Positions 9,904 through 54,942 of a DNA stretch of 64,000 bases are shown one piece after another. The stretch lies in sequence record OZ035800.1; one strand, given 5' to 3'. The notes below the pieces were generated by a model that saw only the letters and a program-made list of their open reading frames with translations, was not told the DNA's origin and made no database searches. Position numbers and translations under genes: made by a program. The number at the start of each line of letters is the position of its first letter. Positions within the stretch are counted from its first letter, which is position 1. The stretch comes from Felixounavirus LF82P5.

Positions 9904-12599
9904 TGCACCTCATACCAGCTCTTACCAACCTTACCTGTGCCAGTTACAAGCGTCTCACTCTTCAAACCTAAATTCTTAGATGCCTGACCATACATCCAGT
10001 CAGTTATGGCTTTAACTTCTTGAGTCATACTTTCTGGGCATTCCCAACTGTTTTCATCGTGGTATGCCAGCAAAAGCCTAGCACCGATTGCTGGTTTTCG
10101 TCCATTTAATTTTGTCAACCCTTCTTCACATGCTCTTCTACAAGCAAGGTTAATTGCCTCATTTTGAATCTGAGCCTCCGAACCCATAAGCAAATAATTC
10201 AATAACTTATGTGGAGATTTACACCACAACCAAGCTCCAGCAACCTTTACAAAACCCCCTTTAGAGATTGCAGCAGTCTTACCAAACACCTCTTCAAGTG
10301 CCTTTTTAGTTGCTTTGTAGTCAGCTTCCAAGTCATCTAGCAGCTTCTTAATTTTAGGCAAACGAATAAAGTAAGTCTGTTTAGTCAGCGCACCTTCCTG
10401 AGTAGTTGCAGCTTTAATCGTCTTAGCAAACTTCTCATCACCTGCACCGAACAGTAGTGCATAGATACCATTCTTAGCTTTCTTACGACCTTTGCTAATC
10501 TCATGAAGAAGATTCTCATCCTGAGTAGCTCGACAAGTCAAGATATCCTGCTCATCATTCAAGCTAAAGTAAATACTGTTCAGTGTATGTGCATCAGTCC
10601 CTGAATAGACAACGTACAGGTCATTCTCAGAGTCATAACGAAGGTACTTATCAATCTCTGGGTTGAGGTACTCATCAAAGTGTTTGCAGTAATAGCGTCC
10701 ATCTTCTTGACGAATAAACTCAATCTCTTCTTTACCTTGCGTTACCGCTTTGGTGAACTCTTTATCACCCATAAAGTTACAAAGAAGAACTAGCTGGGCT
10801 GAGTTCATATCTACAGAGACAACGTTAGTACCTTCCTCACAAATCCACACTGCCCTCATTGGTTCCCCATAGACAGCAGCACCAGACGGTACGTTTACAA
10901 TACCATATTGTGTCATACGTCCAGTTGAAGTACCAAATACCATTGCACCAGCACTAAGGCGACCATCTGGACGAATCTGGTTCAGCCAACCTTTCTCGTC
11001 ATCCTTTGAGTTCTCAATAGTTCTGCGTCGGTGCATCAAAGTATAGTACTTAGCAATCTTCTGTCCAAGCTCACCTTCAATCGTATCATAAGATGATTCA
11101 GTAAGTTTTGGTGAAGTACGGATTAAGCAAGGTTCAAGCAAATCTGTGTATTTCTTCACAGACCAGTTATGCTCGATGTACTGTACACCTTCATGTTCAA
11201 CATAACTCAAACCACACCGCTCAACCATTTCCTGCCACTTAGGATGCTTTGTAATCATCTTTTTATTGTCTTTGAAACGACAAACTTTGACAGGGCGACC
11301 ATCTGAGTCTTTCTTGTAGTTCCAGTCATCTGGAATCCAACCAACTGATTTCAAGTAGTCTTTAACAACTGCTACCTGAGTCATACGAGAAACTTCAAAC
11401 TCAATTGGTGTATATGGTGCATCAATCAAACCTGTGTAGCGACTTGACTCAAGTTCAAAGTGGTTAACAACATGACTGTTATAGTACTTCACAGTTTTGA
11501 CTGTTTTTACTGGCTTCCAGTCTTTGCATTTCTTACCAATCTTTGCGTTCAACTCATTGCAAATTGCACGAGCATCCTTCATTGCTACAAAACCTTCCTT
11601 GTACTCTTCACCAGTTACAGAGTTGGTTGGTGTATAGCAATTTCTCTTTTCAATGTTAAAAATCTTTGTAGTTGGTTTACCAAATGGCTTGATTTCGTAT
11701 GTCTGCATCTCACCGTTACGCACCTGCTGACGGTACTTTGTCTTAGGGTACTTGGTAATTCTCTTCAGTCCATCTGCATGACCAAATGTTTCAACATACT
11801 CATTCCAAGCTTTTGCAAACTCTTCTCCAGTCACTTTACCTTTGGTCTTAATAGTTGGTGGAAGGTGTGGTTCAACTTCTGAAGCAAGCTCATTAGTCAA
11901 CTTGTCAAGCTCCTTTACATGGAACTCCATAAGCTCCTTATCAGCTTTCCAACCATTGATAGCTTGTTGACTCATCCAGAAAGATGTTTCTTTAGCTCGC
12001 ATGTAGGTTTCATAAGTATCTACGCCACACTTCTTCAGCTTGAGATATTCATTATCCAGTGCACGTTTAGTTTTGGCGTTAATACGGATATCTTCTACAA
12101 CACGAGTGAAGATTTCTGCATTCCAAACACCCCAATGCTCAATCTCTGGCTTACGAACACCAACACGAGCACCCCATGCAGCCAAGCCATGAGCACCCTT
12201 ATAACCTTTTGGGGTTGGTCTATCCATCCACTGAACACGAGACTGGATAAGAGAATCCTGAAAGAAATTACTCCACGGTTTACACTTTGGATTATCAAAG
12301 TTCCACAAATCAGGTGCAATGTGATTGAAAACCCACCAGTCATAACCCAGACCATTATGGATGCAAAGTCGTTTTGCCTTTAACGCAAACTCAATACCTT
12401 CACGTAAACCGCCTTTGATGTACTTGGTGTATTTGTGACCGAGGATAGGCTCATCTGTAAAGACCCATACAGGTGGCTCTTCATCGTCAGATTTATAGTC
12501 TGCGAAAGCCATTACGTGCACTTTAGTGAACTCAAGGAGTAAACCATCAGTTTCTGTATCACCAACTAAATGTAAGTTTTTAAAATCTATGTTTTCCAT
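9900..12599 (-). CDS. DNA polymerase, family A, with 3'-5' exonuclease domain
   Basis: Exo I DTETDG; Pol A motif A DMNSAQLVLL, motif B RKKAKNGIYALLFGAG, motif C YHDE; start placed at ATG 12599 with GAGGGAG Shine-Dalgarno (track start 12629). Confidence 0.85.
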   Translation of the reverse strand: MENIDFKNLHLVGDTETDGLLLEFTKVHVMAFADYKSDDEEPPVWVFTDEPILGHKYTKYIKGGLREGIEFALKAKRLCIHNGLGYDWWVFNHIAPDLWNFDNPKCKPWSNFFQDSLIQSRVQWMDRPTPKGYKGAHGLAAWGARVGVRKPEIEHWGVWNAEIFTRVVEDIRINAKTKRALDNEYLKLKKCGVDTYETYMRAKETSFWMSQQAINGWKADKELMEFHVKELDKLTNELASEVEPHLPPTIKTKGKVTGEEFAKAWNEYVETFGHADGLKRITKYPKTKYRQQVRNGEMQTYEIKPFGKPTTKIFNIEKRNCYTPTNSVTGEEYKEGFVAMKDARAICNELNAKIGKKCKDWKPVKTVKTVKYYNSHVVNHFELESSRYTGLIDAPYTPIEFEVSRMTQVAVVKDYLKSVGWIPDDWNYKKDSDGRPVKVCRFKDNKKMITKHPKWQEMVERCGLSYVEHEGVQYIEHNWSVKKYTDLLEPCLIRTSPKLTESSYDTIEGELGQKIAKYYTLMHRRRTIENSKDDEKGWLNQIRPDGRLSAGAMVFGTSTGRMTQYGIVNVPSGAAVYGEPMRAVWICEEGTNVVSVDMNSAQLVLLCNFMGDKEFTKAVTQGKEEIEFIRQEDGRYYCKHFDEYLNPEIDKYLRYDSENDLYVVYSGTDAHTLNSIYFSLNDEQDILTCRATQDENLLHEISKGRKKAKNGIYALLFGAGDEKFAKTIKAATTQEGALTKQTYFIRLPKIKKLLDDLEADYKATKKALEEVFGKTAAISKGGFVKVAGAWLWCKSPHKLLNYLLMGSEAQIQNEAINLACRRACEEGLTKLNGRKPAIGARLLLAYHDENSWECPESMTQEVKAITDWMYGQASKNLGLKSETLVTGTGKVGKSWYEVH

Positions 12600-30320: not shown

Positions 30321-30641
30321 ATGAGCAAAGTTTATAACACTCGTAAATTACAGATTTTCGTACTGTGCCAGTTTATGGCTAAAGAATACAACTTCTACTA
30401 TTGTGGTACAGGTTTTATTAGCGATGATGATGGCTCATACCTCCCATTCAAAGAAGCTGTAAAACTCTTTAATGAAGAGAAAAGCTCTAAGAAAGATATT
30501 GAAAAGGTTAAGCTAACCTACAGCAAGAAAGATAAGAAGATTATCTGCCTAGATAACTTTGTGAAAGTTACTAGAGAAGCAAAAGAGTTTATGGATGAGA
30601 GTGATATTTCATTCACAAGCATCTTGAAAGTAGCTCAGTAA
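30321..30641 (+). CDS. hypothetical protein
   Basis: 106-aa ORF. Confidence 0.4.
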   Translation: MSKVYNTRKLQIFVLCQFMAKEYNFYYCGTGFISDDDGSYLPFKEAVKLFNEEKSSKKDIEKVKLTYSKKDKKIICLDNFVKVTREAKEFMDESDISFTSILKVAQ

Positions 30642-30692
30642 ACAGATACTATAAGGGGACTGTAAAGGTTCCCTTTTTATTTTGGAGGTAAA

Positions 30693-32417: not shown

Positions 32418-34199
32418 ATGACTAAATCACTTTATGCAGTACCAGCAGGTTTAAATGCAGATGCTTACAAATCTGGTCATGTTTACCAGTATCCTAGCGC
32501 AACAGAGTACTTGATGTTCAATCTGACACCACGTAGCGACAAATGGTTTAACAGCCCCTTAGCAATTGACGGTGTAGTGGCTTTTGGTATTCAACGTTTT
32601 GTTAAAGATTACTTGATAGACCACTGGAATGCCACTTTCTTTGAACGTGATAAAAAAGAAGCAATTGACGAAATCTTAGAAGTCATGAATGGTGTTCTGG
32701 GCAAAGATGCTATCGGTCGAGAGCATTGGGAAGCACTCCACGATTTAGGTTATCTACCAGTTGAAGTATATGCTGTAGAAGAAGGTACAGTTGTCCCGAT
32801 GCGTGTCCCAATGATTGTCTTCCAGAACACTGTTTCAGGCTTCCATTGGGTAGCAGGTTATCTGGAAGATGCTTTCTCTGCTGAGATTTGGAAGGCTTGC
32901 ACCATTGCGACTATTGCATTGCACTACAAACGTATATGTAAGAAGTGGGCTGACCTTACTTGTGACAATGACCTACATTTACCTTATCAGTGTCACGACT
33001 TTGCTATGCGTGGTATGTCCGGCTTTACTGATGACGCATTTAACGCTGTAGGTCACTTAACCAGCTTTAAAGGAACCGATAGCTTCCCTGCTGTATACAC
33101 GGCTAAACGCATCTATGGACAGTCTTACCCAATCTCTGATATTGGTAGTTCTGTACCAGCCACTGAACACTCTGTAATGTGTGCAAACATTGCTTGGGAA
33201 GGTGGTAATGAGTTGATTGAAGAAGAAAGACGCTTTAAAGGTGAGTTACAAACCTTCCGTCGTTTCTTAACAGAAACTTACCCAACAGGTATTGCAAGCA
33301 TTGTTTCAGATACTTATAACTTCTGGAGAACTGTGTCAGAAATCTTACCAGCACTTCGTAAAGAAATTATGGAACGTGATGGCAAACTGGTAATTCGCCC
33401 TGACTCTGGAGACCCTGTACATATTGTCACAGGTTATAAAGCAATCCACTTAGAATGTGCTAAGAAGGCTTATTACGAGCACCTAAGCAAGCTGGAAGCC
33501 AGTGACACAATGTTGAATGCTGTTCTGAACATGAAGCTTGAGAACATCAACTATGGTATTGCTGGATGGCTACTGTCAGAAGGCTACGAGATGGTTGTTG
33601 ACAGAGAAGACTTTGAAGTTGCTGATACAGTGATGTTGAAAAATGCTTATATGGTTGGTTCTGCAAACGTTGTAACACGTCCTGTAGCTGAGATTGATGG
33701 AGCTATTAAGACACTGTACAACATCTTTGGGGGAACTATTAACTCTAAAGGCTTTAAAGTACTGGATGAGCATATTGGACTTATTTATGGCGACTCTATC
33801 ACGTTGGAACGTGCAAATGAAATACTGAAGCGTTTGTATGAAATGGGTTTTGCAAGCTCTAACGTAGTGTTTGGTGTAGGTTCTTACACTTACCAGTACA
33901 TGACTCGTGACACCTTTGCATTTGCTGTCAAAGCAACCCTTGCAAGCATTGGTGGTAAAGAGATTATGCTTGCAAAAGACCCTAAAACAGATAGTGGTGT
34001 TAAGAAGTCTGCTTTTGGTGGTGTAGCACCTATGTGGGATGGTGAAAATCTGAAAGCTGTAGATGGCTATGGGTTCCAGAGCTTTGCAGATGCACTTGAA
34101 CATCCAGCTTGTGCTTTACGTCTAGTCTTTAGTGACTCTGAGCAGTTCGGCTACACAACTCTTGGTGATATTCGAAATAATATTGACAAGCAGCTTTAA
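32418..34199 (+). CDS. nadV: nicotinamide/nicotinate phosphoribosyltransferase family protein (NadV-like)
   Basis: N-terminal DAYKSGH motif typical of the NAPRTase/NAMPT family; sits next to prs. Confidence 0.6.
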   Translation: MTKSLYAVPAGLNADAYKSGHVYQYPSATEYLMFNLTPRSDKWFNSPLAIDGVVAFGIQRFVKDYLIDHWNATFFERDKKEAIDEILEVMNGVLGKDAIGREHWEALHDLGYLPVEVYAVEEGTVVPMRVPMIVFQNTVSGFHWVAGYLEDAFSAEIWKACTIATIALHYKRICKKWADLTCDNDLHLPYQCHDFAMRGMSGFTDDAFNAVGHLTSFKGTDSFPAVYTAKRIYGQSYPISDIGSSVPATEHSVMCANIAWEGGNELIEEERRFKGELQTFRRFLTETYPTGIASIVSDTYNFWRTVSEILPALRKEIMERDGKLVIRPDSGDPVHIVTGYKAIHLECAKKAYYEHLSKLEASDTMLNAVLNMKLENINYGIAGWLLSEGYEMVVDREDFEVADTVMLKNAYMVGSANVVTRPVAEIDGAIKTLYNIFGGTINSKGFKVLDEHIGLIYGDSITLERANEILKRLYEMGFASSNVVFGVGSYTYQYMTRDTFAFAVKATLASIGGKEIMLAKDPKTDSGVKKSAFGGVAPMWDGENLKAVDGYGFQSFADALEHPACALRLVFSDSEQFGYTTLGDIRNNIDKQL

Positions 34200-34213
34200 A
34201 AGTATATGATAAG

Positions 34214-34235
34214 AGGCTCCTACGGGAGCCTTTTT
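34214..34235 (+). terminator. rho-independent terminator
   Basis: AGGCTCC-TACG-GGAGCCT hairpin followed by a T run. Confidence 0.6.
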
Positions 34236-45563: not shown

Positions 45564-45827
45564 ATGGAAAACGTAGAATTAACCACACTTTTACAAATTG
45601 CAACCGACAAAGAAAACGTAGCTTTATTTCACCGCATCGAAAGTGATTTGTTCAATGGTGAAATCATCAAAGAGTCTTACGAGGTTGTTGGATTCAAAGA
45701 TGGTAAAACATTTGGATTCTTTGACCTCGAAAAAGGCAACGCTGTTACAAAATATGATGTTTTATCTTGTGAGATTCTTACAAAATACAACGAAAAAAGG
45801 CTTGCAACATACGCTAATATGCAGTAA
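45564..45827 (+). CDS. hypothetical small protein
   Basis: 87-aa ORF driven by cassette copy 4. Confidence 0.5.
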   Translation: MENVELTTLLQIATDKENVALFHRIESDLFNGEIIKESYEVVGFKDGKTFGFFDLEKGNAVTKYDVLSCEILTKYNEKRLATYANMQ

Positions 45828-45893
45828 ATTACTAATCAACGGGAGGCGATAACCTCCCCACTAAATAAAACCCTTAAACTAGGAGATTCAAAA
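45802..45893 (+). promoter_or_regulatory. promoter-hairpin-RBS cassette, copy 5
   Basis: TTGCAA-17 nt-TAAATT (TAA is the upstream stop), variant hairpin GGGAGGCGATAACCTCCCC, AGGAG RBS. Confidence 0.55.
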
Positions 45894-46142
45894 ATGGCAA
45901 CTATCCGCGCTACTGTTAACGAGTTCGGTTTTTCCTCTCTGGATGTTAAATTTGACATTGCAGGCACTGATAACGCCTTTGAAATGGTGAAAGGTCTTAT
46001 CAGTCAGACCATCAAAGACTATAATCCTTCTGATGAGTTCTGGAAAGAAACAAAACAGGAAGTTCTCAAAGAGGGTTATTCTTATCACTATTGGGGTGAA
46101 AAAATTGTCTCTCTGTACTACGACAAAGAAGGCACTAACTAA
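45894..46142 (+). CDS. hypothetical small protein
   Basis: 82-aa ORF driven by cassette copy 5. Confidence 0.5.
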   Translation: MATIRATVNEFGFSSLDVKFDIAGTDNAFEMVKGLISQTIKDYNPSDEFWKETKQEVLKEGYSYHYWGEKIVSLYYDKEGTN

Positions 46143-46182
46143 ACGCCGCAGCGGGGCTAAATAGCCCCAGATACCTTTATAC

Positions 46183-46204
46183 AGCCCCTCATAGGGGCTT
46201 TTTT
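46183..46204 (+). terminator. rho-independent terminator
   Basis: AGCCCC-TCAT-AGGGGCT followed by TTTTTT; preceded by a second hairpin GGGGCT-AAAT-AGCCCC. Confidence 0.7.
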
Positions 46205-46205
46205 A

Positions 46206-47801
46206 CGTCTATCCAATCCTTATACAATCCCTTTCCCTTTCCTTTCCAGAATCTTATCAGACCTTAAAAACAATAACTCTATAGTCTACTCTATAACCCT
46301 TTATCAAATCAACTTAAATATAAGCCCATAACCCGAAAGGGAAGGGCAACCATTAAAACGCTCTATAAAGCTCTATAACAGCCTTATCAACCTAACTTAA
46401 GGGATTGCATTAACCTATCTTAAAAAGCTCTTTACAGGGCTTTATAGAGCCTTAAAAGAATCTTATAAGGGTGTAAGCTTTATCATCTCGTTAGCTATCT
46501 TGTGAATAACTAAAAAGGGCTATGAGATAGGAATCTATCGAATCCTATTGATAGTGTCTAAAAAGTATGTTATAGGGGCTATAAAGTTACTTTGAAGTAG
46601 CTTAAAAGTTACGTAAATGCTAGCCCCCTTAACATTCTCTTAACAAATTCTTAACAATCCCTACATAGTTATGCTTGTTAGCAACTTGTTAGCCCCTTGT
46701 TAAATCTCTGTTAAGACCACGTAAAAGCCTTGTAAGAGCCTTTGACATAGCCTTAAAAGCTCCTGTAAAGCCCTATAAAGAGCTTTCTTCATAGTTGGGG
46801 TGTAATTACTAGGAAGAGCCTTAAAAGAGCTTACAAGGAGCTATAGAGAGCTTTTAAGAGGTATGTTTAAAGAGTCACTAAGAGGGAAAGGGAACGATAA
46901 GAAAAGAGATAGTGACCATGTTAATAGCTTGTTAAAAAGATTAAATACTTGTTAGAAACTTGTTAATTATCTTAACAAAATAACTCTTTAAAATTAACTT
47001 GTTAGCTCTTGTTAGTCATCTGTTAAGCCTCTGTAAAGACTATTCAGCAACTGTTAAGAAACTGTTACAGCCTTGTTAGTTCTGTTAAGAATCTGTTAAG
47101 ACCTTTGAAGAGCTGTTAAGAAGATGTGAGAACTGTTAAGAGATTGTTAAGGATATTTTAAAATTTTGCAAAGTACTTGTAAGGGAGCTGTTAAGGGCTA
47201 CCAAGCAGATATACATCTTCTACAGATATTTTTGAGTTCCTTCAAAGACCCTAAAAAATGACTTGACAGTCCTATTTTATAAAAATTTTAAGATTCTGAA
47301 TAATTACCTATACAGTCTTTTAAAAATACAGGTAGAAACAGGTTTATAAGATACCTTGTTAGTACCGTGTTAGACCTTGTGAGATAAGGTCTGTAAAGAT
47401 ATTCCTGTTAAGTTTGTTAAAACAGTCTATATAGAGGCTTAGTAATACCTAGTGAACACCTATAGAGAGTGTCATAGCTTACATAGAGATTAAGAGGTGT
47501 ATAGGAGCTTCTAAGAGTGTGTAGAGAGATGGTTAAGATGATTGTATAGGTTGTTTAGAAGGCTTGTTAGAAGAGTGTTTAGATGGCTATTTAGAAGGGC
47601 TATACAGAGGGCTATTAAGACCACTAGATAGTTGCTAAGATACTATATAGTACTATATAACTATATAGAGAGTAAGATTAAGAAGGTTGTTAAGAAGGGT
47701 AGATATTTTGTTCACATATGATGGTGACCCAGAGGTTGGGACAACCGATAAAATTTTATAAAAATTAAAAAGCCCCCAATTAAGGAGGCTCTTAAGATAT
47801 T
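46206..47801. other. 1.6-kb repeat-dense region with no ORF of 60 codons or more
   Basis: No track ORF on either strand; dense short direct and inverted repeats (CTGTTAAG, CTTGTTAG, AGCCTTAAAAG, CTATAAAGAGC, TTTAGAAGG, ACTATATA). Confidence 0.6.
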
Positions 47802-48425
47802 TTAAATCAGTGTTTCCAGAACTGTCTTCAGTGATGACTTGGTTGTCTGATAAAAATGAGTAAATCCATTGTTGTTATCGAATATCTGCATCATGATATC
47901 ATCTCCCTTGATTGGGTACACTCGGATATCATAGTGAAAACCATTAAAGACACAAGAACCACTACAGAATGCACTAAAGTCAGCCACTGAGATGTACTCT
48001 TCATGACCTGTGATTTTTATACAGACACCCTTACTTGGTCTCTTAGGGTTGATATCTTCCATCACAGACATACTCTGTCCACCAAGAGATACCATAGTGA
48101 CCACTTTACGGTTCTTCTGTCTAAAGTACATCTTAACTTTCTGTAAAGTGTCTTCATAGAACGGATAAGACCTTTCTACAAAGATTCCTTCAAGTGGCTC
48201 TTTACCATTTTCAACTTCTCGGTTATGCCGTACTGCAAAGATAATTTGTTCGAACCAGTCAAGATTTTCTTCGGAGAGTGCTTCTCGAACATCACTCCAG
48301 TCAAGTACTAGGTAGTTACCTTCAACTTCTTTTAAGTTATCTTTTTCCATAGATATCACACCATTATCGTAAAACTTGATATTCTGGTACTGCGAATTTA
48401 TTACTATTGTTCTTGATGAGGTCAT
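47802..48425 (-). CDS. hypothetical protein
   Basis: 207-aa ORF, last gene of a compact minus-strand block. Confidence 0.45.
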   Translation of the reverse strand: MTSSRTIVINSQYQNIKFYDNGVISMEKDNLKEVEGNYLVLDWSDVREALSEENLDWFEQIIFAVRHNREVENGKEPLEGIFVERSYPFYEDTLQKVKMYFRQKNRKVVTMVSLGGQSMSVMEDINPKRPSKGVCIKITGHEEYISVADFSAFCSGSCVFNGFHYDIRVYPIKGDDIMMQIFDNNNGFTHFYQTTKSSLKTVLETLI

Positions 48426-48828
48426 CCTCTGAAACTAAAAATGTAATACCACATAAGTGTCTGTAACGACTATCATACTCGAATATCTTAAACAGATATT
48501 TACCATCATGATAAACCTGTTGCACTTCACCTTCTGCAACAATCTCGCCTGTAATAAAATTTTTTAGTTTATACACATTACCAACTTTAGGTACTGTTTT
48601 CATCTCAGGCTCTTTTAGTGCTACACCTATTTTTGCATCACCGAGTAAATGAGAACTCTCAAAAGCTACGTGTTTCATATAAGCTTCTGAACATTCCCAA
48701 ATAAAACAATGTACAAGAATCTTAGCAGCATGTCTTGAACAGTTCAACTTATCACAAATTTCTGTGTACATCTCATCTTTAGTGGAATTGTCAAGCATTG
48801 CTCTTTGCACTACTTCTTTAATTTTCAT
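48364..48828 (-). CDS. hypothetical protein
   Basis: 154-aa ORF. Confidence 0.45.
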   Translation of the reverse strand: MKIKEVVQRAMLDNSTKDEMYTEICDKLNCSRHAAKILVHCFIWECSEAYMKHVAFESSHLLGDAKIGVALKEPEMKTVPKVGNVYKLKNFITGEIVAEGEVQQVYHDGKYLFKIFEYDSRYRHLCGITFLVSEDDLIKNNSNKFAVPEYQVLR

Positions 48829-49246
48829 AAGCTCTCCGAATAACCCTATTAAGCATCTCTAAAGTCAGCTTTCCAGATTCTAAATGCGGCATAACAAGCT
48901 TTAAAGCTTTTTCAACATCATGCACAACATCTATTATACCTTCTGCATAGGCTTCCACAAGGATATCTTTTACGTTTTGTGGATTACCTTTTTGTGGTAT
49001 CACTAGGCACATATCAAACTCATTTGCTTGAGGATGGTTCTTACCACGCCAGTAACCATCTTTGTTAAAGCTGATGTAGTCACCGTGGTAAAAGTGTACA
49101 CCATTAGCTTTAAACTTCTCCAGCACAAGGCATTGAATTGGGTATTCAGTATTCCACTCCCTGACTCCTATAACCTTCACTGTTGCGATGTACTCCTGTG
49201 TTTTTGCATCTATGATGTCAAGTTCTTGACCAGCAATGATTTGCAT
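48818..49246 (-). CDS. hypothetical protein
   Basis: 142-aa ORF. Confidence 0.45.
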   Translation of the reverse strand: MQIIAGQELDIIDAKTQEYIATVKVIGVREWNTEYPIQCLVLEKFKANGVHFYHGDYISFNKDGYWRGKNHPQANEFDMCLVIPQKGNPQNVKDILVEAYAEGIIDVVHDVEKALKLVMPHLESGKLTLEMLNRVIRRAYEN

Positions 49247-49299
49247 ATTCGCTACCTTCTAAGTTTCTACAAAGGGGCTATCAAGTAACCCCTAAGTTA

Positions 49300-49524
49300 T
49301 TACTCAGACTTTTCAGTCTTCTTATCGGATTTCTTACTAGTCTTCTTCTCAGCCTTCTGCTCAGGTTCCTTCTCAGAAGTTGCCTTGATAACCATATCAA
49401 GAAGCTCTGATAAGTCACTCTTCAGCAAAGTAACAGGCTGCTCGTTGTAGAAGTTTTTGTCAAGATAAACTTTGAACTCTTCTATAGAAGGAAATCCAAA
49501 AATTGGTACAGGTGTCTTAATCAT
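49300..49524 (-). CDS. hypothetical protein
   Basis: 74 aa with Lys/Ser-rich C-terminus. Confidence 0.4.
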   Translation of the reverse strand: MIKTPVPIFGFPSIEEFKVYLDKNFYNEQPVTLLKSDLSELLDMVIKATSEKEPEQKAEKKTSKKSDKKTEKSE

Positions 49525-49600
49525 TACTTAGTCTCTCCATAGGCATCTTTTAAGATTGCCTTGTTAATCATTTCAGCGATTGCAAAACGAACACATACAG

Positions 49601-50134
49601 CTATAATTGTAGGTTGCATTCTTTACTTACCTCTTCAAGTTTAACCTCAGAATCCTTAAGTCGTTTCTTATAAACTCTGAACCTCATTAGTGAGATGATG
49701 ATACCAGCTAAAGGAACAACATACAAGTACCAGACATCATGCAACTTTGCAGTAATCTGTGTAATGGTCAAGTCTTGAGCTATACAACTGATTGCTGATA
49801 CTACCAGTAACATTGCTAAGAAGAACGCCAATACCATAACAATACTTAGGCATCCTCTGGCATGGTGTTCATGCTTAATACACTTGTTCTTTTCATCAAC
49901 AACCATGTTGTAGTCGTTTGTAAAGTCTCTGTAGAAAGCTTTCAAGTATTCTTGACTGTAGCCCTCAAAGCAACCTGTACCGTACCAATAATCACCACCA
50001 AAATGTGCTATGATACCGGTATCTCCATTCGGTTTGGTTACTCTAAGAGAAGTATGATGACCAGTCTTCTGGTAATCTATTTTGTATCTTTCTTCGTAAA
50101 TCATTTCCCAACCCCTCTCAATCGTTTGTTCCAC
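49601..50134 (-). CDS. membrane protein of unknown function
   Basis: 177 aa with two hydrophobic helices in the C-terminal half. Confidence 0.45.
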   Translation of the reverse strand: MEQTIERGWEMIYEERYKIDYQKTGHHTSLRVTKPNGDTGIIAHFGGDYWYGTGCFEGYSQEYLKAFYRDFTNDYNMVVDEKNKCIKHEHHARGCLSIVMVLAFFLAMLLVVSAISCIAQDLTITQITAKLHDVWYLYVVPLAGIIISLMRFRVYKKRLKDSEVKLEEVSKECNLQL

Positions 50135-50319
50135 TCAAGGTCAACAAGCCTTTGCAGGACTTTCCCTCTAGGTGTTACACCCTTTAAATCTGCATCGTAG
50201 CAACGGTAAAAGTCACCTTCAGCGTGTTTACCATAGCATTTTCTGATATTCTGGCTCCTACGATACTGCTCTAACAGGGACAGTTTGTAGTAGTTTTCAA
50301 CTGTAGTTAGTTTTTTCAT
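50101..50319 (-). CDS. hypothetical protein
   Basis: 72-aa ORF. Confidence 0.35.
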   Translation of the reverse strand: MKKLTTVENYYKLSLLEQYRRSQNIRKCYGKHAEGDFYRCYDADLKGVTPRGKVLQRLVDLEWNKRLRGVGK

Positions 50320-50861
50320 TCTTTCACCATAGCATTTCTGAACTGGCGTTGAGTCTCTCTTGTAATTTCGTTTGGAGTAAACCCTGCTTTTAGCATATCT
50401 CTGAAAAGAACTTCTAAATGGTTCCTCTCAATGATGTAAATGGCATTCTGAATAGCTGTTTTGCGCTCCTTCAGGTCACTACTAATCTCTTCGCACTTAC
50501 TGGTAAGTTCTGTGTCAACTTTCTTATAGACTGGCATAACATGTGCGTAGCAACCTTTATTAGTCTCCATGAAAAATTTAAAAGATTCTTCAGAGTCCTT
50601 TAGAGCAATCCCTATAAAGTTTTTGTAAGCACCTGTGAAAGATAAGGAATCAATCTCAGCAGTTGAGTATACAGTCCCTGCACACAGTCTTGCAGAAGTA
50701 CTGAATGTGTGGTTTGGTGTTGTGTCAAAGTCTAAGTTCTTCAGTGGTCGGAAATAAACTGTACCATTGTGTGAGATGTGTGTTACAACAGCCTCAACAC
50801 TCTTTGAAGGATTCTGTTTAACATACAAAATAATTTTATCGTGTTCTTTCACTTTAGCCAT
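50316..50861 (-). CDS. hypothetical protein
   Basis: 181-aa ORF. Confidence 0.45.
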   Translation of the reverse strand: MAKVKEHDKIILYVKQNPSKSVEAVVTHISHNGTVYFRPLKNLDFDTTPNHTFSTSARLCAGTVYSTAEIDSLSFTGAYKNFIGIALKDSEESFKFFMETNKGCYAHVMPVYKKVDTELTSKCEEISSDLKERKTAIQNAIYIIERNHLEVLFRDMLKAGFTPNEITRETQRQFRNAMVKE

Positions 50862-50933
50862 ATCTATTCTCCAGAAACTAAAAAGGGAACTACCTCTCGA
50901 TAGCTCCCATCATAATCAATATTGTATACTCGG

Positions 50934-51515
50934 TCAAGAGTATTTTTTAGGCAGCAATGCACTGCGCTTGTTGCTCTCTTCACTCAATAGTGCAATGAAA
51001 TCATCACTTTTACCTTTCCACGGGCTGAATGAAGGGATATGTTCACGGATAGCCTCGATAACCGTCTTAAGTGCCGTGTTCTTCATCCACCAATCAGAAT
51101 CTGCTGATGCCACCACGTAGTATCCACCGTCATCAGTTAAAATTGGCTCTGAAATACATGGTGAAATCAAAGTGGTGATAATTGAACCATTGTTCATGTA
51201 GTATGTGCGTTTCATAACCTTTTCAAGAAGCTTGTGAAGGTCGCCAAACAATGTTACAAGTTCTTTGTGGTCAATATCTTTTTCGAGGTTTGCTCGATAC
51301 TTCAATAGTGCAGCATCAACCTCTCTGTCATTGAACTTGAAATATTGAACCTCTTCAACAAGGCAAACACTGATATTGTTGACATTCATAGTCAACTTGC
51401 AAACTTTTACAGGAGAGTTGATATTTGGTTGAAAAAGTGCAATACAACCTTCAATATTTCCAAAATGTTGTACCAGTGTTACTTGTGGAGTAATATTCTG
51501 TTGCTCTTCGGACAT
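50934..51515 (-). CDS. hypothetical protein
   Basis: 193-aa ORF. Confidence 0.45.
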   Translation of the reverse strand: MSEEQQNITPQVTLVQHFGNIEGCIALFQPNINSPVKVCKLTMNVNNISVCLVEEVQYFKFNDREVDAALLKYRANLEKDIDHKELVTLFGDLHKLLEKVMKRTYYMNNGSIITTLISPCISEPILTDDGGYYVVASADSDWWMKNTALKTVIEAIREHIPSFSPWKGKSDDFIALLSEESNKRSALLPKKYS

Positions 51516-51859
51516 TACAGTTTCCTCATTAAATACTTTTTAAGTTGTGTGTTAGGTTTCTCAAAAACTTCTATAGAAGATATCTTGACAGATTCACCTC
51601 GCATACCAGTATGTTTGAATATGTAATACTCTAACATCCCTATGTACTTTGCTGGTAAGTCATGCTTGACATACACCGTTACAGAATCTTCAAATTCGAC
51701 AACCTTCGTACCATCTTTGTAGTTAAACTCTTTAGGATGGTTGTAGTTATCTATGTCGTACATTAAAAATAGTCTTTTACGTTGTAAGTCAAGCTTATTT
51801 GTTAAAGACTCTTTGATATCTGAGAAGTTTTTGTAAACTGTGACATGGAGCTTACTCAT
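51515..51859 (-). CDS. hypothetical protein
   Basis: 114-aa ORF; 1-nt overlap with neighbour. Confidence 0.45.
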   Translation of the reverse strand: MSKLHVTVYKNFSDIKESLTNKLDLQRKRLFLMYDIDNYNHPKEFNYKDGTKVVEFEDSVTVYVKHDLPAKYIGMLEYYIFKHTGMRGESVKISSIEVFEKPNTQLKKYLMRKL

Positions 51860-52145
51860 CGTTAAACTCTCTGACGAAGAAATAGTTGACTTTATTATTA
51901 CCTACCATAAGGTCAAAGCAGGTATTCTCAAAAGGTTTGTTGTAGGCATCATATGAAACGTATGGGTCAGATACTTGCTTAGTACTTAACTTCTTACTTG
52001 ATGGGTTTAAGAGGCCACCATACAGCTTCTTGATAGCCTCTTCTACAACAGACCAGATAATTTCGTCAGTAATTTCTTCGTACAGGTCAAGTTCACGCTC
52101 TAGTGAGAAGTCACAAATAGGGAAAACAACCTGTACTTTACTCAT
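51852..52145 (-). CDS. hypothetical protein
   Basis: 97-aa ORF. Confidence 0.45.
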   Translation of the reverse strand: MSKVQVVFPICDFSLERELDLYEEITDEIIWSVVEEAIKKLYGGLLNPSSKKLSTKQVSDPYVSYDAYNKPFENTCFDLMVGNNKVNYFFVREFNDE

Positions 52146-52534
52146 TAACGAATCACCTGTGAGACTTGAATTGCTTCAGTTACTGACAAGTCACCTACTT
52201 TCTCTTCTTTGATAAAAGTGAAGGTGAGTTCAACAGGCTCTTGCTCTTCTTGCTCAACTGGAATGCCATTAAGCTCATCGCGGATTGATTGAGTTGTCCA
52301 GTCTTCTCCACCATCTGGATAATGGATGGCGTAACGAGGAAACTCCATATCATACCAGCCAAATACAGGACAACCATCTTCATCATCTCGCATTCTGCGA
52401 AGGGTGCTACCTGAGCCTGTAAAGCGAAGACTAATATTCCCATTACACTCAAAAATCACTGCGTCGGCAAGTCCAGCATCTTCTCGACCATCATGTCCAA
52501 AAGTGTCAACTTTTACTTGAATCTCTTTATTCAT
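52145..52534 (-). CDS. hypothetical protein
   Basis: 129-aa acidic ORF. Confidence 0.45.
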   Translation of the reverse strand: MNKEIQVKVDTFGHDGREDAGLADAVIFECNGNISLRFTGSGSTLRRMRDDEDGCPVFGWYDMEFPRYAIHYPDGGEDWTTQSIRDELNGIPVEQEEQEPVELTFTFIKEEKVGDLSVTEAIQVSQVIR

Positions 52535-52925
52535 AAAAACCTCTCTCTGCTTGTTCGATTTTTGCTCTTAAAACTTCACAACGTTCTATGTGATATCTGG
52601 CCTCATGCTCATGTGTTGCCAAAGTCCTTTCAAGAACTGTTTTATAGTAACTCGCAAGCTGCTCTCTTGTCAAGGGGTGTTCTGAAATAATATCAAGGCC
52701 ACTTTCCCCTAGAGTATTAAACTGCCCGTGTTCATTTACATGGTAAGTCTCAAACTTGAACAGGCCGTTGTTAGCAGATTCAATAGGTGATAGTTCAGCC
52801 AACTCAACAGTGAACATTGTGTGTACCCTATCACCAATTGTAACAATGTTACTCCCAATGATTCTCACCATTGAGCCATTGCGAGTGTACTTAAAAGCCC
52901 CAACATCATCAGCCCAAAGTTTCAT
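52527..52925 (-). CDS. hypothetical protein
   Basis: 132-aa ORF. Confidence 0.45.
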   Translation of the reverse strand: MKLWADDVGAFKYTRNGSMVRIIGSNIVTIGDRVHTMFTVELAELSPIESANNGLFKFETYHVNEHGQFNTLGESGLDIISEHPLTREQLASYYKTVLERTLATHEHEARYHIERCEVLRAKIEQAERGFYE

Positions 52926-52943
52926 AGTTTTCTCCTTAGAAAA

Positions 52944-52967
52944 TAAAAAAGGCTCCCGAAGGAGCCT
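52944..52967 (-). terminator. rho-independent terminator (minus strand)
   Basis: On the minus strand AGGCTCC-UUCG-GGAGCCU hairpin followed by a U6 run, downstream of the endolysin stop. Confidence 0.6.
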
Positions 52968-52976
52968 ATGAAGATA

Positions 52977-53441
52977 TTACTTTGGGTATACACTGTCAAG
53001 ATAAATGTCAGCTTCCATTCTACGTCTGTTTTTCAGGCCGTTTGAAGTGACCTTCTTACCTTTGACTGTAACCTTGTTCCACCACTGCATAGCTTCTGCA
53101 CAACCGACCTTATTACCAGCATTGTGGCGCTTGATAAATGTGGAATCCTGCATAGCTGTGATACCGATGTTGTATGTTTCACTTACAAGTGCATCAAACT
53201 CGTTCTGAGAAGTTGGAACCTTGATGGCTTTATTCACTGCTGCAACGAATTTTTCAACATCTGCAAGAAGATACTGTTCAGCTTGTTCAGCAGTAATTTT
53301 CATACCCATCTTAACAGGTTTTCCGTCAATACGGATTGTTCCATAACCGATTGTTGGGATTCCGGCAGAGTCTTCGTAAGCCTCTAACTTCAGACCTTCA
53401 AAGAACTTAATAGCCTCTAAACCTTTTCTTGAGAGTTGCAT
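52977..53441 (-). CDS. endolysin, T4-lysozyme-like (GH24)
   Basis: 154 aa; GLKLEAYEDSAGIPTIGYG contains the Glu-8 aa-Asp-5 aa-Thr catalytic arrangement of T4 lysozyme. Confidence 0.7.
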   Translation of the reverse strand: MQLSRKGLEAIKFFEGLKLEAYEDSAGIPTIGYGTIRIDGKPVKMGMKITAEQAEQYLLADVEKFVAAVNKAIKVPTSQNEFDALVSETYNIGITAMQDSTFIKRHNAGNKVGCAEAMQWWNKVTVKGKKVTSNGLKNRRRMEADIYLDSVYPK

Positions 53442-54574
53442 TATGCCTCCCCTGCTGGATTAACTGTAACTGTTGCTGCGTTAGATGTTACAGAGCCACC
53501 TGCACCAGTAACTACACAGGTGTAGCTTCCTGAATCAGCAGCGGTTGCACCTTCTTTGGTGTAAGTTGCAGTAGTTGCATCGAGGATGTCTTCCTCACCT
53601 TTCTTCCACTGGTAACTTGTTGCACCTGTTGCCACAACATTCAGCGTTAAGGTATCACCTTCAGTGATTCCTTGATTGGTTGGCTGTTGAGTGATTACTG
53701 GAAGTGCGTTCACAGTTACTACAGCAGCATTAGATTCCACTGCACCACCTGCACCTGTTACAACGCAAGTGTATGAACCTGCATCTGCTGGCAGAGCACC
53801 AGACTTGCTATAGGTGGCATCTGTAGCCGAAGGAATGTCAGAGCCATCTTTCTTCCACTGATAACCTGTTGCACCTGTTGCAGTCACTTCCAAGTTGATG
53901 TTTCCACCCTCATTGATAGTCTGGCTAGAAGGTTGTTGTGTAATCACAGGTAGTGCGTTCACAGTCACTGTTGCTGCATCTGAGGTAACACTTGTTCCAC
54001 CCTCTCCAGATACAACACAAGTATAAGAACCAGCATCAGAAGGTGCTACAGACTGTTTTGTGTAGGTTGCAGATGTGGCGCTAGTGATATCCTCACCATC
54101 CTTTTTCCATTGATATCCAGTGGCATTAGTTGCAATAATGCTTAGGGTAAGTGTACCACCTTCATTTACTGTTTGATTGGTTGGTTGCTGAGTAATTGAT
54201 GGTGGCTTGATAGCGTCCTTCAACTTAGCATTCAACATTGAGAATGGTTTAACTCTTGCCAGCCATTCACAATAAACTGTATCAACGTCTTTACCATTGA
54301 TAATTGCATATTGTAAGTCCATGAAGAAGTCAGAAGTTCTCATTTGAGCACCAACGCTATAAAGCAACTCATCACTAAATGGAACTTTGTAGTCTGGTTT
54401 GTAGTCAAACTTCTCAACTTCTGCGATATCAGCTTCAGGCCAATATGAGCTATAGGTGAGTGGTAAAATAGCCTCTTGATATGTTCTAAAATCATATCTC
54501 TTACCAGCCTTTACATTTGCAATGAAGCCCTTCACAAACTCTTTGAAGTCTGGGTAAGTCTTTGCTTTAATCAT
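53441..54574 (-). CDS. protein with three tandem Ig-like domains
   Basis: N-terminal roughly 130-aa domain plus three repeats of about 80 aa (ITQQP...YQWKKDG...AGSYTCVV...VTVN). Confidence 0.55.
   Translation of the reverse strand: MIKAKTYPDFKEFVKGFIANVKAGKRYDFRTYQEAILPLTYSSYWPEADIAEVEKFDYKPDYKVPFSDELLYSVGAQMRTSDFFMDLQYAIINGKDVDTVYCEWLARVKPFSMLNAKLKDAIKPPSITQQPTNQTVNEGGTLTLSIIATNATGYQWKKDGEDITSATSATYTKQSVAPSDAGSYTCVVSGEGGTSVTSDAATVTVNALPVITQQPSSQTINEGGNINLEVTATGATGYQWKKDGSDIPSATDATYSKSGALPADAGSYTCVVTGAGGAVESNAAVVTVNALPVITQQPTNQGITEGDTLTLNVVATGATSYQWKKGEEDILDATTATYTKEGATAADSGSYTCVVTGAGGSVTSNAATVTVNPAGEA
53460..54200. repeat. tandem DNA repeats (three units of about 250 bp) encoding the Ig-like domains
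   Basis: Repeated blocks on the plus strand such as CACCTGCACCAGTAACTACACAGGTGTAGCTTCCTG / CACCTGCACCTGTTACAACGCAAGTGTATGAACCTG. Confidence 0.5.
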
Positions 54575-54942
54575 TTCTTTTTAGCCTCTAAATGTGCGTT
54601 TAGTCTAAAATAACCTTTGTGATGCGGAGATACATCACCAACAACAATACCTTTAACCTTATAACCTTTACCAATTACATACTGGATATCCATAAGGAAT
54701 CTTCCAAGACCAACAATATGGAACATTGGATATAATAGATTCTCAGAATCTGGAATATTGATTTCAGGTTTGTAGGTACGCTGTTCGCTTGTTGGTGTAA
54801 TATCTTCTTCAGGCCACTTACTGAGTCTCCATGTCAAAGGTGTTGGGATAACATCATTAAGGTTGTACCTTTCACCATTTTGCACGGAATTGATATAGGA
54901 TTGTAGGAAGCAATAAAAGTCTTTTGCACTCTTAGCTTTCAT
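54571..54942 (-). CDS. paralogue of the N-terminal domain of 53441..54574
   Basis: MKAKSAKDFYCFLQSYINSVQNGERY... aligns with MIKAKTYPDFKEFVKGFIANVKAGKRY...; shared ...FLMDIQYVI motif. Confidence 0.45.
   Translation of the reverse strand: MKAKSAKDFYCFLQSYINSVQNGERYNLNDVIPTPLTWRLSKWPEEDITPTSEQRTYKPEINIPDSENLLYPMFHIVGLGRFLMDIQYVIGKGYKVKGIVVGDVSPHHKGYFRLNAHLEAKKK

Follow-up and report, generated by a model that had tools for sequence, protein, structure and literature searches.

A tightly packed run of small genes lying between a repeat-dense region and an endolysin gene raises the question of what such proteins do for the phage that carries them. The run occupies positions 47802-52925, on the minus strand, of a window of 64,000 nucleotides (nt) from Felixounavirus LF82P5 (sequence record OZ035800.1), the window being the whole stretch of DNA that was analysed. 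A preliminary description of this DNA had counted twelve consecutive unknown genes there and had proposed host takeover or anti-defence as the kind of function that such blocks commonly carry. In our reading, which we hold to be probable, the block is a conserved, non-structural accessory module of the Ounavirinae, made up of independent host-interaction factors that would tune fitness on particular hosts. The block itself is already known, since its genes have been annotated as hypothetical from the Felix O1 genome of 2010 onwards and were included in a genome-wide knockout screen. Our additions are modest, and consist of a thirteenth gene, a map of core versus accessory genes, a predicted Whirly-like fold with an orphan N-terminal domain in one protein, and a putative promoter-against-terminator design.

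The open reading frame (ORF) listing bore out the coordinates of all twelve minus-strand ORFs, and the setting was as described, with a gap at 46143-47801 on one side and a GH24 endolysin gene at 52977-53441 on the other. We numbered the genes in transcription order, from O12 to O1 (gene O1 is not to be confused with phage Felix O1); all of them, and all regulatory elements of the block given below, lie on the minus strand. The block is 97.3% coding, and adjacent genes share 1-19 nt at all but three junctions, which are gaps of 72 nt (O8/O7), 53 nt (O4/O3) and 13 nt (O2/O1). The overlapping or abutting starts and stops reported earlier were thus found inside sub-blocks but not at the 72-nt and 53-nt gaps, both of which contain hairpins. 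The total of twelve genes overlooked O4b (31 amino acids (aa), 49524-49619). The size range of 72-207 aa holds at its lower end (O6), but the 207-aa ORF, a genuine gene (O1), most probably begins at 48350 and is then 182 aa long: the Met at this position is invariant in 23 homologues, and the same start is annotated in four of the eight records checked. The ORF listed with a GTG start and 177 aa (O5) is likewise a gene, but other records annotate it as a 167-aa ATG ORF at 49601-50104.

Some or all of these ORFs might be chance open frames in AT-rich, non-coding DNA, for which nothing speaks except the missing known motifs. Every one of the twelve larger proteins matched its own PHROG family (E values of 1e-43 to 1e-111), all of unknown function, in agreement with the earlier statement that the sequences identify no function. 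The block is 99.0% identical to Felixounavirus LF82P5 and has matches in 247 phage records, almost all of them Felix O1-group phages of Escherichia, Salmonella, Shigella and Citrobacter, in which the genes are annotated as hypothetical; 173 phage records cover at least 80% of it, at 88-99% identity. The comparison with related phages that had been proposed as a check found the genes in unchanged order among the Felix O1 group and likewise, one by one, in a second genus (gp5-gp18 of Mooglevirus Sf14). For all 13 genes, tblastn gave protein identities of 68-100% within the genus (58% for a distant O3 allele) and 25-72% to Sf14. The Sf14 values lie below that of the endolysin (86%) and do not exceed that of the Hex-Dec decoration protein (70%), except for O4b (72%). 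The ratio of nonsynonymous to synonymous substitution (dN/dS), calculated pairwise by the Nei-Gojobori method against five Felixounavirus genomes and Sf14, was 0-0.3 for every gene including the 31-aa O4b, with a maximum of 0.48 for O3 against its distant allele. Because of the PHROG matches, the low dN/dS and the conserved lengths and overlaps, the ORFs are real genes and not chance frames; they are conserved, syntenic and under purifying selection. A chance origin sits badly with dN/dS far below 1 for every ORF, with order, lengths and overlaps kept across two genera at 25-72% protein identity, and with the reverse transcription PCR (RT-PCR) products obtained in Felix O1. Judged by this pattern of conservation in the sequences, the chance-frame explanation is already refuted, and we give it practically no weight.

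The correspondence between phages could be followed gene by gene. In Bas63 (MZ501086), O1, O2, O4, O4b, O5 and O6 are g112, g113, g114, g115, g116 and g117, O8-O12 are g118-g122, and the neighbouring endolysin and immunoglobulin (Ig)-domain protein are g123 and g124; O3 and O7 have no counterpart there. The Felix O1 block comprises genes 24-34, with the lysin as gene 35, as judged from the supplementary protein lengths and the wV8 cross-references (PMC3185647). Position and orientation are the same in the annotation tables of HMD-P10, XTG1, Bas63, Sf14, VpaE1, wV8, UAB_Phi87 and Shy.

Within this conserved frame, the genes differ in history. Against HMD-P10, a single genome pair, synonymous divergence (dS) was 0.08 for O3, 0.10 for O4, 0.98 for O2, 1.03 for O12 and 1.56 for O8, and by protein identity O2, O3, O7, O8, O11 and O12 each sort into discrete allele classes. 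These abrupt gene-to-gene shifts and discrete classes therefore show that the block is a recombinational mosaic at the scale of single genes. Near-invariant within the genus are O4, O4b, O9 and O10 (95-100% identity), with O6 at 93-99%. Phage records with a DNA match number 252 for O9-O10, 96 for O3 and 79 for O7, and Bas63 cleanly lacks both O3 and O7; at its O3 site the same ribosome-binding region now sits ahead of O2. These proteins evolve through exchange of gene-sized pieces and through gain and loss of entire genes.

The non-structural character of the block is consistent with both homology searches and virion analyses. Searches of Pfam, NCBIfam and PADLOC gave nothing above noise for the block proteins; in particular, no PADLOC defence model matched any of the ten larger proteins at E <= 0.1, no anti-defence family of Pfam (e.g. 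ArdA or Ocr) was matched, and PDB sequence profile searches with ten proteins returned nothing at E < 0.005. The earlier remark that the proteins carry no recognisable motifs therefore stands for Pfam, NCBIfam, PADLOC and PDB sequence searches, and the remote-homology check proposed with it has now been run as profile searches, with no significant match in these four resources. Rfam likewise gave no match at E <= 0.1 in 45800-53000. Homologue clusters numbered 19 for O8, 19 for O5 and 114 for O1, and came only from named Ounavirinae, a few bacterial- or archaeal-labelled records and unnamed contigs. Clear homology to structural or assembly proteins had been named as the finding that would overturn the earlier description; no structural family was found in Pfam, PHROGs or PDB. 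In agreement with this, virion proteomics of Felix O1 detected products 23, 36, 49, 53 and higher and none of gp24-34 (PMC3185647), the mass-spectrometry table of Sf14 virion products contains gp20 and gp29-55 and none of gp5-18 (PMC11821841), and the block proteins are not among the virion components listed in the published cryo-electron microscopy (cryo-EM) study of Bas63 (PMC12609058).

How the block is transcribed can be proposed from four hairpins and two promoter-like elements. A strong intrinsic terminator, a hairpin with a T-run (AGGCTCC-ttcg-GGAGCCT, 52950..52967), separates the endolysin gene from O12; eight relatives, Sf14 among them, have it unchanged, and the XTG1 and wV8 records list it as a terminator. 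Abutting it is a sigma70-like element, P1 (52971..52999, TTGACA-17-TATCTT), whose -10 ends 3 nt ahead of the terminator stem and whose -35 falls in the last codons of the endolysin gene; in Sf14 the element is partly coding and is a weaker match (-35 TTGACg, -10 TAGATT). Between O8 and O7, a second strong terminator with a 10-bp stem and T-run (50885..50908), also annotated in XTG1 and wV8, is preceded by P2 (50909..50937, TTGACC-17-TATGAT), the -10 of which ends right at the stem. In Sf14 this hairpin has a single A-to-G change in its 3' arm, converting a U-A pair into a G-U wobble. The non-coding spacer of P2 has diverged there, yet both hexamers (TTGACA, TATGAT) and the hairpin are kept, which is good evidence that P2 is functional. 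A weak hairpin in the O4/O3 gap (49273..49293, AGGGG...CCCCT followed by TTGTAG) keeps its stem but not its loop in Sf14; the XTG1 and wV8 records mark it as a terminator, but our hairpin scans did not call it, and it may act as an attenuating terminator. A strong intrinsic terminator, again annotated in XTG1 and wV8, closes the block at 47768..47793.

Across the window, 4 of the 17 terminator-like hairpins have a promoter whose -10 ends 0-3 nt ahead of the stem; the expected number is 0.23 (binomial P = 6e-5). Apart from the two sites of the block (52999-52950 and 50937-50885, both minus strand), the arrangement occurs at 30624-30675 and 34183-34233 on the plus strand. On this basis the block would consist of two sigma70-type units, O12-O8 and O7-O1, read by the host polymerase. 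Transcripts arriving from upstream would stop at the hairpin. Transcription from the abutting promoter would begin 5-9 nt after the -10, within the 5' arm of the hairpin, so that such transcripts could not form it and would read on. The Felix O1 genome paper of 2010 left open how these phages transcribe past their many terminators (PMC3185647), and this promoter-against-terminator design may explain how Felix-O1-like phages do so.

The same region invites a rather different explanation, namely that the block belongs to a late morphogenesis or lysis programme (assembly chaperones, scaffolds and lysis regulators, with O5 as holin or antiholin) co-transcribed with Hex-Dec and the endolysin. The block lies on the same strand as these two genes and immediately downstream of them, and in Felix O1 all of them are assigned to one '40 to 24' transcripton (PMC3185647). 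RT-PCR there gave transcripts for 10 of the 10 genes tested among 24-34, gene 27 (O5) not being among them; maxima were at 25 min for genes 24, 25, 26, 28, 29, 32, 33 and 34, at the same time as lysin gene 35, whereas gene 31 (O9) peaked at 5 min and gene 30 (O8) at 60 min, the latter together with genes 36 and 37 (PMC3185647). This RT-PCR set is noisy, with for example the major capsid gene 58 scored as early. Against a late role stand the conserved strong terminator between the endolysin and O12, the absence of structural or assembly homology and of the proteins from the lists of virion components, and the dispensability of O3 and O7 in nature. Because of the conserved terminator, the lack of a virion listing and the lack of a family match, we regard a late role as improbable; timing and shared strand keep the explanation alive as an unlikely one.

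O5 deserves separate consideration here, as the proposed holin or antiholin. It is encoded at 49601..50104 (167 aa; Felix O1 gp27, Bas63 g116, Sf14 gp11; phrog_4343) and is a predicted inner-membrane protein. An N-terminal domain of ~85 aa is conserved, two segments are hydrophobic (windows at residues 81-115 and 124-142), and the charged C-terminal tail, rich in Lys, Arg and Glu, is invariant. Its homologues occur only in named Ounavirinae phages, E. coli and Salmonella records and unnamed contigs. With its two hydrophobic segments, charged C-terminal tail and an adjacent tiny hydrophobic partner gene, O5 resembles holins, antiholins and superinfection-exclusion proteins, and in the PhageMaP preprint a lysis-related role of gp116 is speculated upon (PMC11482910). 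It differs from them in its 167-aa length and its soluble ~85-aa N-terminal domain, it matched no holin family in Pfam or PHROGs, and it is not beside the endolysin but ~2.9 kb away, in a different predicted transcription unit. The holin candidates of Felix O1 are gp79, gp116, gp118, gp119 and gp131 in Felix O1 numbering and not gp27 (PMC3185647), the T4-like class III holin described in the genome report of the Felix-O1-like phage Mushroom has a single transmembrane domain, as against two in O5, and the spanins of Bas63 are encoded elsewhere (g89, g90). A DivIVA/GpsB-like nature of O5 (residues 45-79) was also considered and rejected: it came from a single PDB match to GpsB at E 0.06, and Pfam DivIVA was absent from 12 family members at E <= 5.

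The partner gene of O5 is O4b (49524..49619, 31 aa; Bas63 g115, Sf14 gp10), which is annotated in Bas63, HMD-P10, UAB_Phi87 and Sf14. It shares 19 nt with the end of O5, and its stop runs into the start codon of O4, an arrangement that would couple its translation to that of both neighbours. The N-terminal half of the O4b protein is hydrophobic; its identity is 97-100% within the genus (dN = 0) and 72% in Sf14. O4 (49300..49524, 74 aa; Felix O1 gp26, Bas63 g114, Sf14 gp9; phrog_4457) has a Lys/Glu-rich tail and a within-genus identity of 97-100%; the PhageMaP preprint describes g114 as roughly XseB-like (PMC11482910). The three products would act at or near the membrane.

Strain S17-1 carries in its chromosome an integrated RP4 derivative with Mu and Tn7. 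This strain matters here because, in the PhageMaP knockout screen of Bas63, g114 (O4) and g116 (O5) became more essential on S17-1 only (PMC11482910). Given these integrated elements, the S17-1-specific requirement could reflect RP4, Mu or Tn7 rather than pili, and O4, O4b and O5 could form a membrane-associated trio that neutralises RP4/Mu-linked exclusion. According to the same preprint, the Bas63 region at ~66-80 kb holds small hypothetical genes that vary in essentiality, and most Bas63 genes were dispensable in laboratory hosts; g112, g113 and g117-g122 are not mentioned in its text (PMC11482910).

These data bear directly on the possibility that the block is an anti-defence island, in which several proteins inhibit bacterial immune systems directly. 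The acidic O11 might then be a DNA mimic directed against restriction or BREX-type systems, and O4, O4b and O5 might counter the RP4/Mu-borne exclusion of S17-1. Such an island would fit the high divergence within the genus (alleles of O11, O12, O2 and O3; gain and loss of O3 and O7), which is as expected in an arms race, and also the strongly acidic composition of O11 (net charge -15, isoelectric point (pI) 4.3) with its variable poly-Glu linker. In the PhageMaP preprint, moreover, g114 and g116 show conditional essentiality that is confined to one host, and nearby accessory genes of Bas63 are validated counters, e.g. g130 against ppl (PMC11482910). On the other hand, the clonally validated Bas63 counters, g77, g79, g80, g84, g85 and g130, all lie outside the block (PMC11482910). 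The dN/dS values are well below 1 for all genes, O4, O4b, O9 and O10 are near-invariant (95-100%), unlike typical anti-defence genes, and no similarity to known families emerged in Pfam, NCBIfam, PADLOC or PDB. Taken together, we consider an island of direct immune inhibitors rather unlikely. The broader proposal of host takeover or anti-defence agrees with the S17-1-conditional g114 and g116 but finds neither a validated counter in the block nor a defence-model match; it was a reasonable prior and not a finding, and is plausible but unproven.

O1 (47802..48350, 182 aa; Felix O1 gp24, Bas63 g112, Sf14 gp5) combines two domains. Its N-terminal ~75 aa form a separate domain with the motif YLVL..D.....EPLEG.FVE.SYP.YE; the consensus over O1 residues 1-77 may also be rendered as YLVLK..D...L.....PL.CVVVE.DWPEYE-like. 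A profile search of 1.84 billion representatives placed this domain in at least 241 clusters at E <= 1e-3, where it mostly starts proteins of 70-250 aa or stands alone, with varied C-termini in the members inspected. It matched no Pfam family, ten long members carried no Pfam domain at all, and four further PHROGs matched on this part of O1 are all of unknown function. The C-terminal domain has a mean predicted confidence (pLDDT) of 87-96 over ten-residue blocks. In the AlphaFold2 model it consists of two repeats, the first with strands E83-87, E93-98, E108-112 and E117-121 followed by helix H122-128, and the second with strands E133-136, E140-148, E151-158 and E164-170 followed by helix H171-181. 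It superposes on several members of the Whirly-like fold above noise level, at 7-14% identity, and we are confident in assigning the modelled domain to the Whirly-like 2x(beta4-alpha) fold. A BFVD fold search yielded nothing beyond the orthologue and a handful of Bacillus-phage proteins that are uncharacterised. Since the Whirly-like fold is that of the Whirly, PUR and MRP1/MRP2 single-strand nucleic-acid binders, we predict that this domain lets O1 bind single-stranded nucleic acid, and the modelled fold speaks for such binding and not for any particular counter-defence role.

O1 is the gene nearest to the gap at 46143-47801, which lies between convergent gene sets and holds 25 plus-strand copies of TGTTA[AG] against 1.5 expected; a spacing of 11 nt is commonest, and some copies are 20-22 nt apart. 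The equivalent gaps contain 19 copies in Sf14 and 28 in Bas63. This iteron-like array, which phages of different genera have in common, may be an origin of replication or a site to which proteins bind. O1 at least might serve replication or recombination there, either by binding single strands or by assisting at an origin. In keeping with such a role are its Whirly/PUR/MRP fold, which occurs in proteins that bind single-stranded DNA or RNA, and the juxtaposition of O1 and the 1.66-kb repeat gap, which is kept in Sf14 and Bas63. But adjacency is all that links O1 to the repeats, and the same fold occurs in an SsgA-like protein, whose family to our knowledge does not bind nucleic acids. Plant Whirly proteins carry a KGKAAL motif, of which no counterpart was seen in the O1 sequence, and the polymerase, primase/helicase and ligase genes are clustered elsewhere (Bas63 g39-g56). 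We regard a replication role of O1 as quite doubtful.

We return to the reading of the block as a conserved, non-structural accessory module. Its products would be small cytoplasmic proteins together with one inner-membrane protein, O5, and its 31-aa partner O4b, and the members would act largely independently as host-interaction factors. Several points weigh against it. Function has been demonstrated for 0 of the 13 proteins. Felix O1 timing is mostly of the middle class, with gene 30 late, and not early as in classic host takeover (PMC3185647), and Hex-Dec and the endolysin, which are late-type genes, lie directly upstream of the block and on its strand. With regard to its transcription, sigma70-like matches are not enriched across the region (27 versus 29.8 expected), and P1 is partly coding and has a weak -10. 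The Whirly-like assignment of O1 is at fold level only, at 7-14% identity, and an SsgA-like protein is among its matches. A more far-reaching idea, which we put forward tentatively and think somewhat unlikely, is that the block is a reservoir of new host-interaction or counter-defence families. In that case O4, O4b and O5 would be a membrane trio, O1, to go by its model, could be the first of a phage class of single-strand binders with a Whirly fold, its N-terminal domain being shared by at least 241 small proteins that are not otherwise related, and O8 could have a fold without a solved relative.

The remaining genes of the block are described here in order of transcription. O12 (52527..52925, 132 aa; Felix O1 gp34, Bas63 g122, Sf14 gp18; phrog_4266, E 7e-77) has dN/dS of 0.10-0.22 and two allele classes, at 80-82% and 95-97% identity. 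O11 (52145..52534, 129 aa; Felix O1 gp33, Bas63 g121, Sf14 gp17; phrog_4348) is among the most divergent within the genus, with allele classes at 68-73% and 92-98% and a dN/dS of 0.28; PDB and Pfam searches were without match for both proteins. The HMD-P10 record names the O11 orthologue (10345-10740) a D-alanyl-D-alanine carboxypeptidase, for which Pfam, NCBIfam and PDB gave no support; this name is probably an annotation error and could spread to other records. O10 (51852..52145, 97 aa; Felix O1 gp32, Bas63 g120, Sf14 gp16; phrog_4385) is an acidic core gene product, 95-99% identical within the genus and 70% in Sf14. O9 (51515..51859, 114 aa, basic; Felix O1 gp31, Bas63 g119, Sf14 gp15; phrog_4040), at 97-100% identity within the genus and dN/dS of 0-0.03, is with O4 and O4b among the most conserved proteins of the block. 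For O8 (50934..51515, 193 aa; Felix O1 gp30, Bas63 g118, Sf14 gp14) no fold relative was recognised.

In the second unit, O7 (50316..50861, 181 aa; Felix O1 gp29, Sf14 gp13; phrog_5380) is accessory and absent from Bas63, and the alignment shows its C-terminal ~30 residues to be nearly invariant. O6 (50101..50319, 72 aa; Felix O1 gp28, Bas63 g117, Sf14 gp12; phrog_4459) is very basic (pI 9.8), has dN/dS of 0.05-0.09 and overlaps each neighbour by 4 nt. O3 (48818..49246, 142 aa; phrog_7193) is accessory, absent from Felix O1 and Bas63 and 25% identical to Sf14 gp8; its two alleles are very different (58% versus 88-95% identity), with dN/dS of up to 0.48. As a separate observation, the O3 region 48829-49246 is only 96.7% identical to LF82P5 (OZ035761.1), otherwise the nearest genome, versus 100% for O7 and O9-O10, which suggests a very recent, local exchange of a single gene. 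O2 (48364..48828, 154 aa; Felix O1 gp25, Bas63 g113, Sf14 gp6; phrog_4713; dN/dS 0.12) begins with a separately recurring domain of ~50 aa (phrog_9565 on residues 2-53, E 4e-12). Impressions of a helix-turn-helix at the N-terminus of O2 and the C-terminus of O7 were without tool support, and we do not claim them.

Upstream of the block, the GH24 endolysin gene (52977-53441, minus strand; PF00959, E 7e-41) is preceded by the gene of the Hex-Dec decoration protein (53441-54574, minus strand), with three Ig-like domains according to Pfam. It corresponds to g124 of Bas63, described by cryo-EM as an Ig-domain hexamer decoration protein, and the same study predicts four Ig-like domains for the Bas63 protein and one to three for other Felixounavirus species (PMC12609058). 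The next gene upstream (54571-54942, minus strand, 123 aa; g125) encodes a paralogue of the N-terminal capsid-binding domain of Hex-Dec (37% identity over ~100 residues, E 1e-15). All-against-all BLASTP found no paralogues inside the block, this pair outside it being the only one nearby. The endolysin orthologue of Bas63, g123, is reported in the PhageMaP preprint as a trigger of the Ec67 retron, its expression being toxic only with the retron present (PMC11482910), an unexpected role for a lysozyme. The DRT7 trigger of Bas63, gene 035, lies outside the block. Downstream, the block is followed by the 1.66-kb non-coding, repeat-rich gap at 46143-47801.

Felix-O1-like phages serve in Salmonella diagnostics, have been put forward for biocontrol and turn up often among E. 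coli phages isolated for therapy, and about a tenth of their gene count lies in this block without an assigned function. Follow-up can now be more targeted, with a non-structural block of two predicted units that is conserved across genera, the nearly invariant O9, O10, O4 and O4b versus the variable O3 and O7, and a prediction of single-strand binding for O1.

Among known systems, T4-like phages carry clusters of small early and middle genes that are mostly dispensable in the laboratory, vary between relatives, and modify the host or counter its defences. The present block differs from these clusters in that no sequence or fold relationship to them was found, in the mainly middle timing seen in Felix O1 and in its position downstream of late-type genes; it resembles them in its dense, short and translationally coupled genes, which, as predicted here, would be read by host RNA polymerase. 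The blocks of Felix O1 (24-34), Bas63 (g112-g122) and Sf14 (gp5-gp18) differ from the present one in single genes, with O3 lacking in Felix O1 and Bas63, O7 lacking also in Bas63, an extra gp7 in Sf14 and allele classes that vary by gene, and share with it the same genes in the same order and on the same strand, the same iteron-rich gap, the same GH24 endolysin/Hex-Dec pair and the same terminators.

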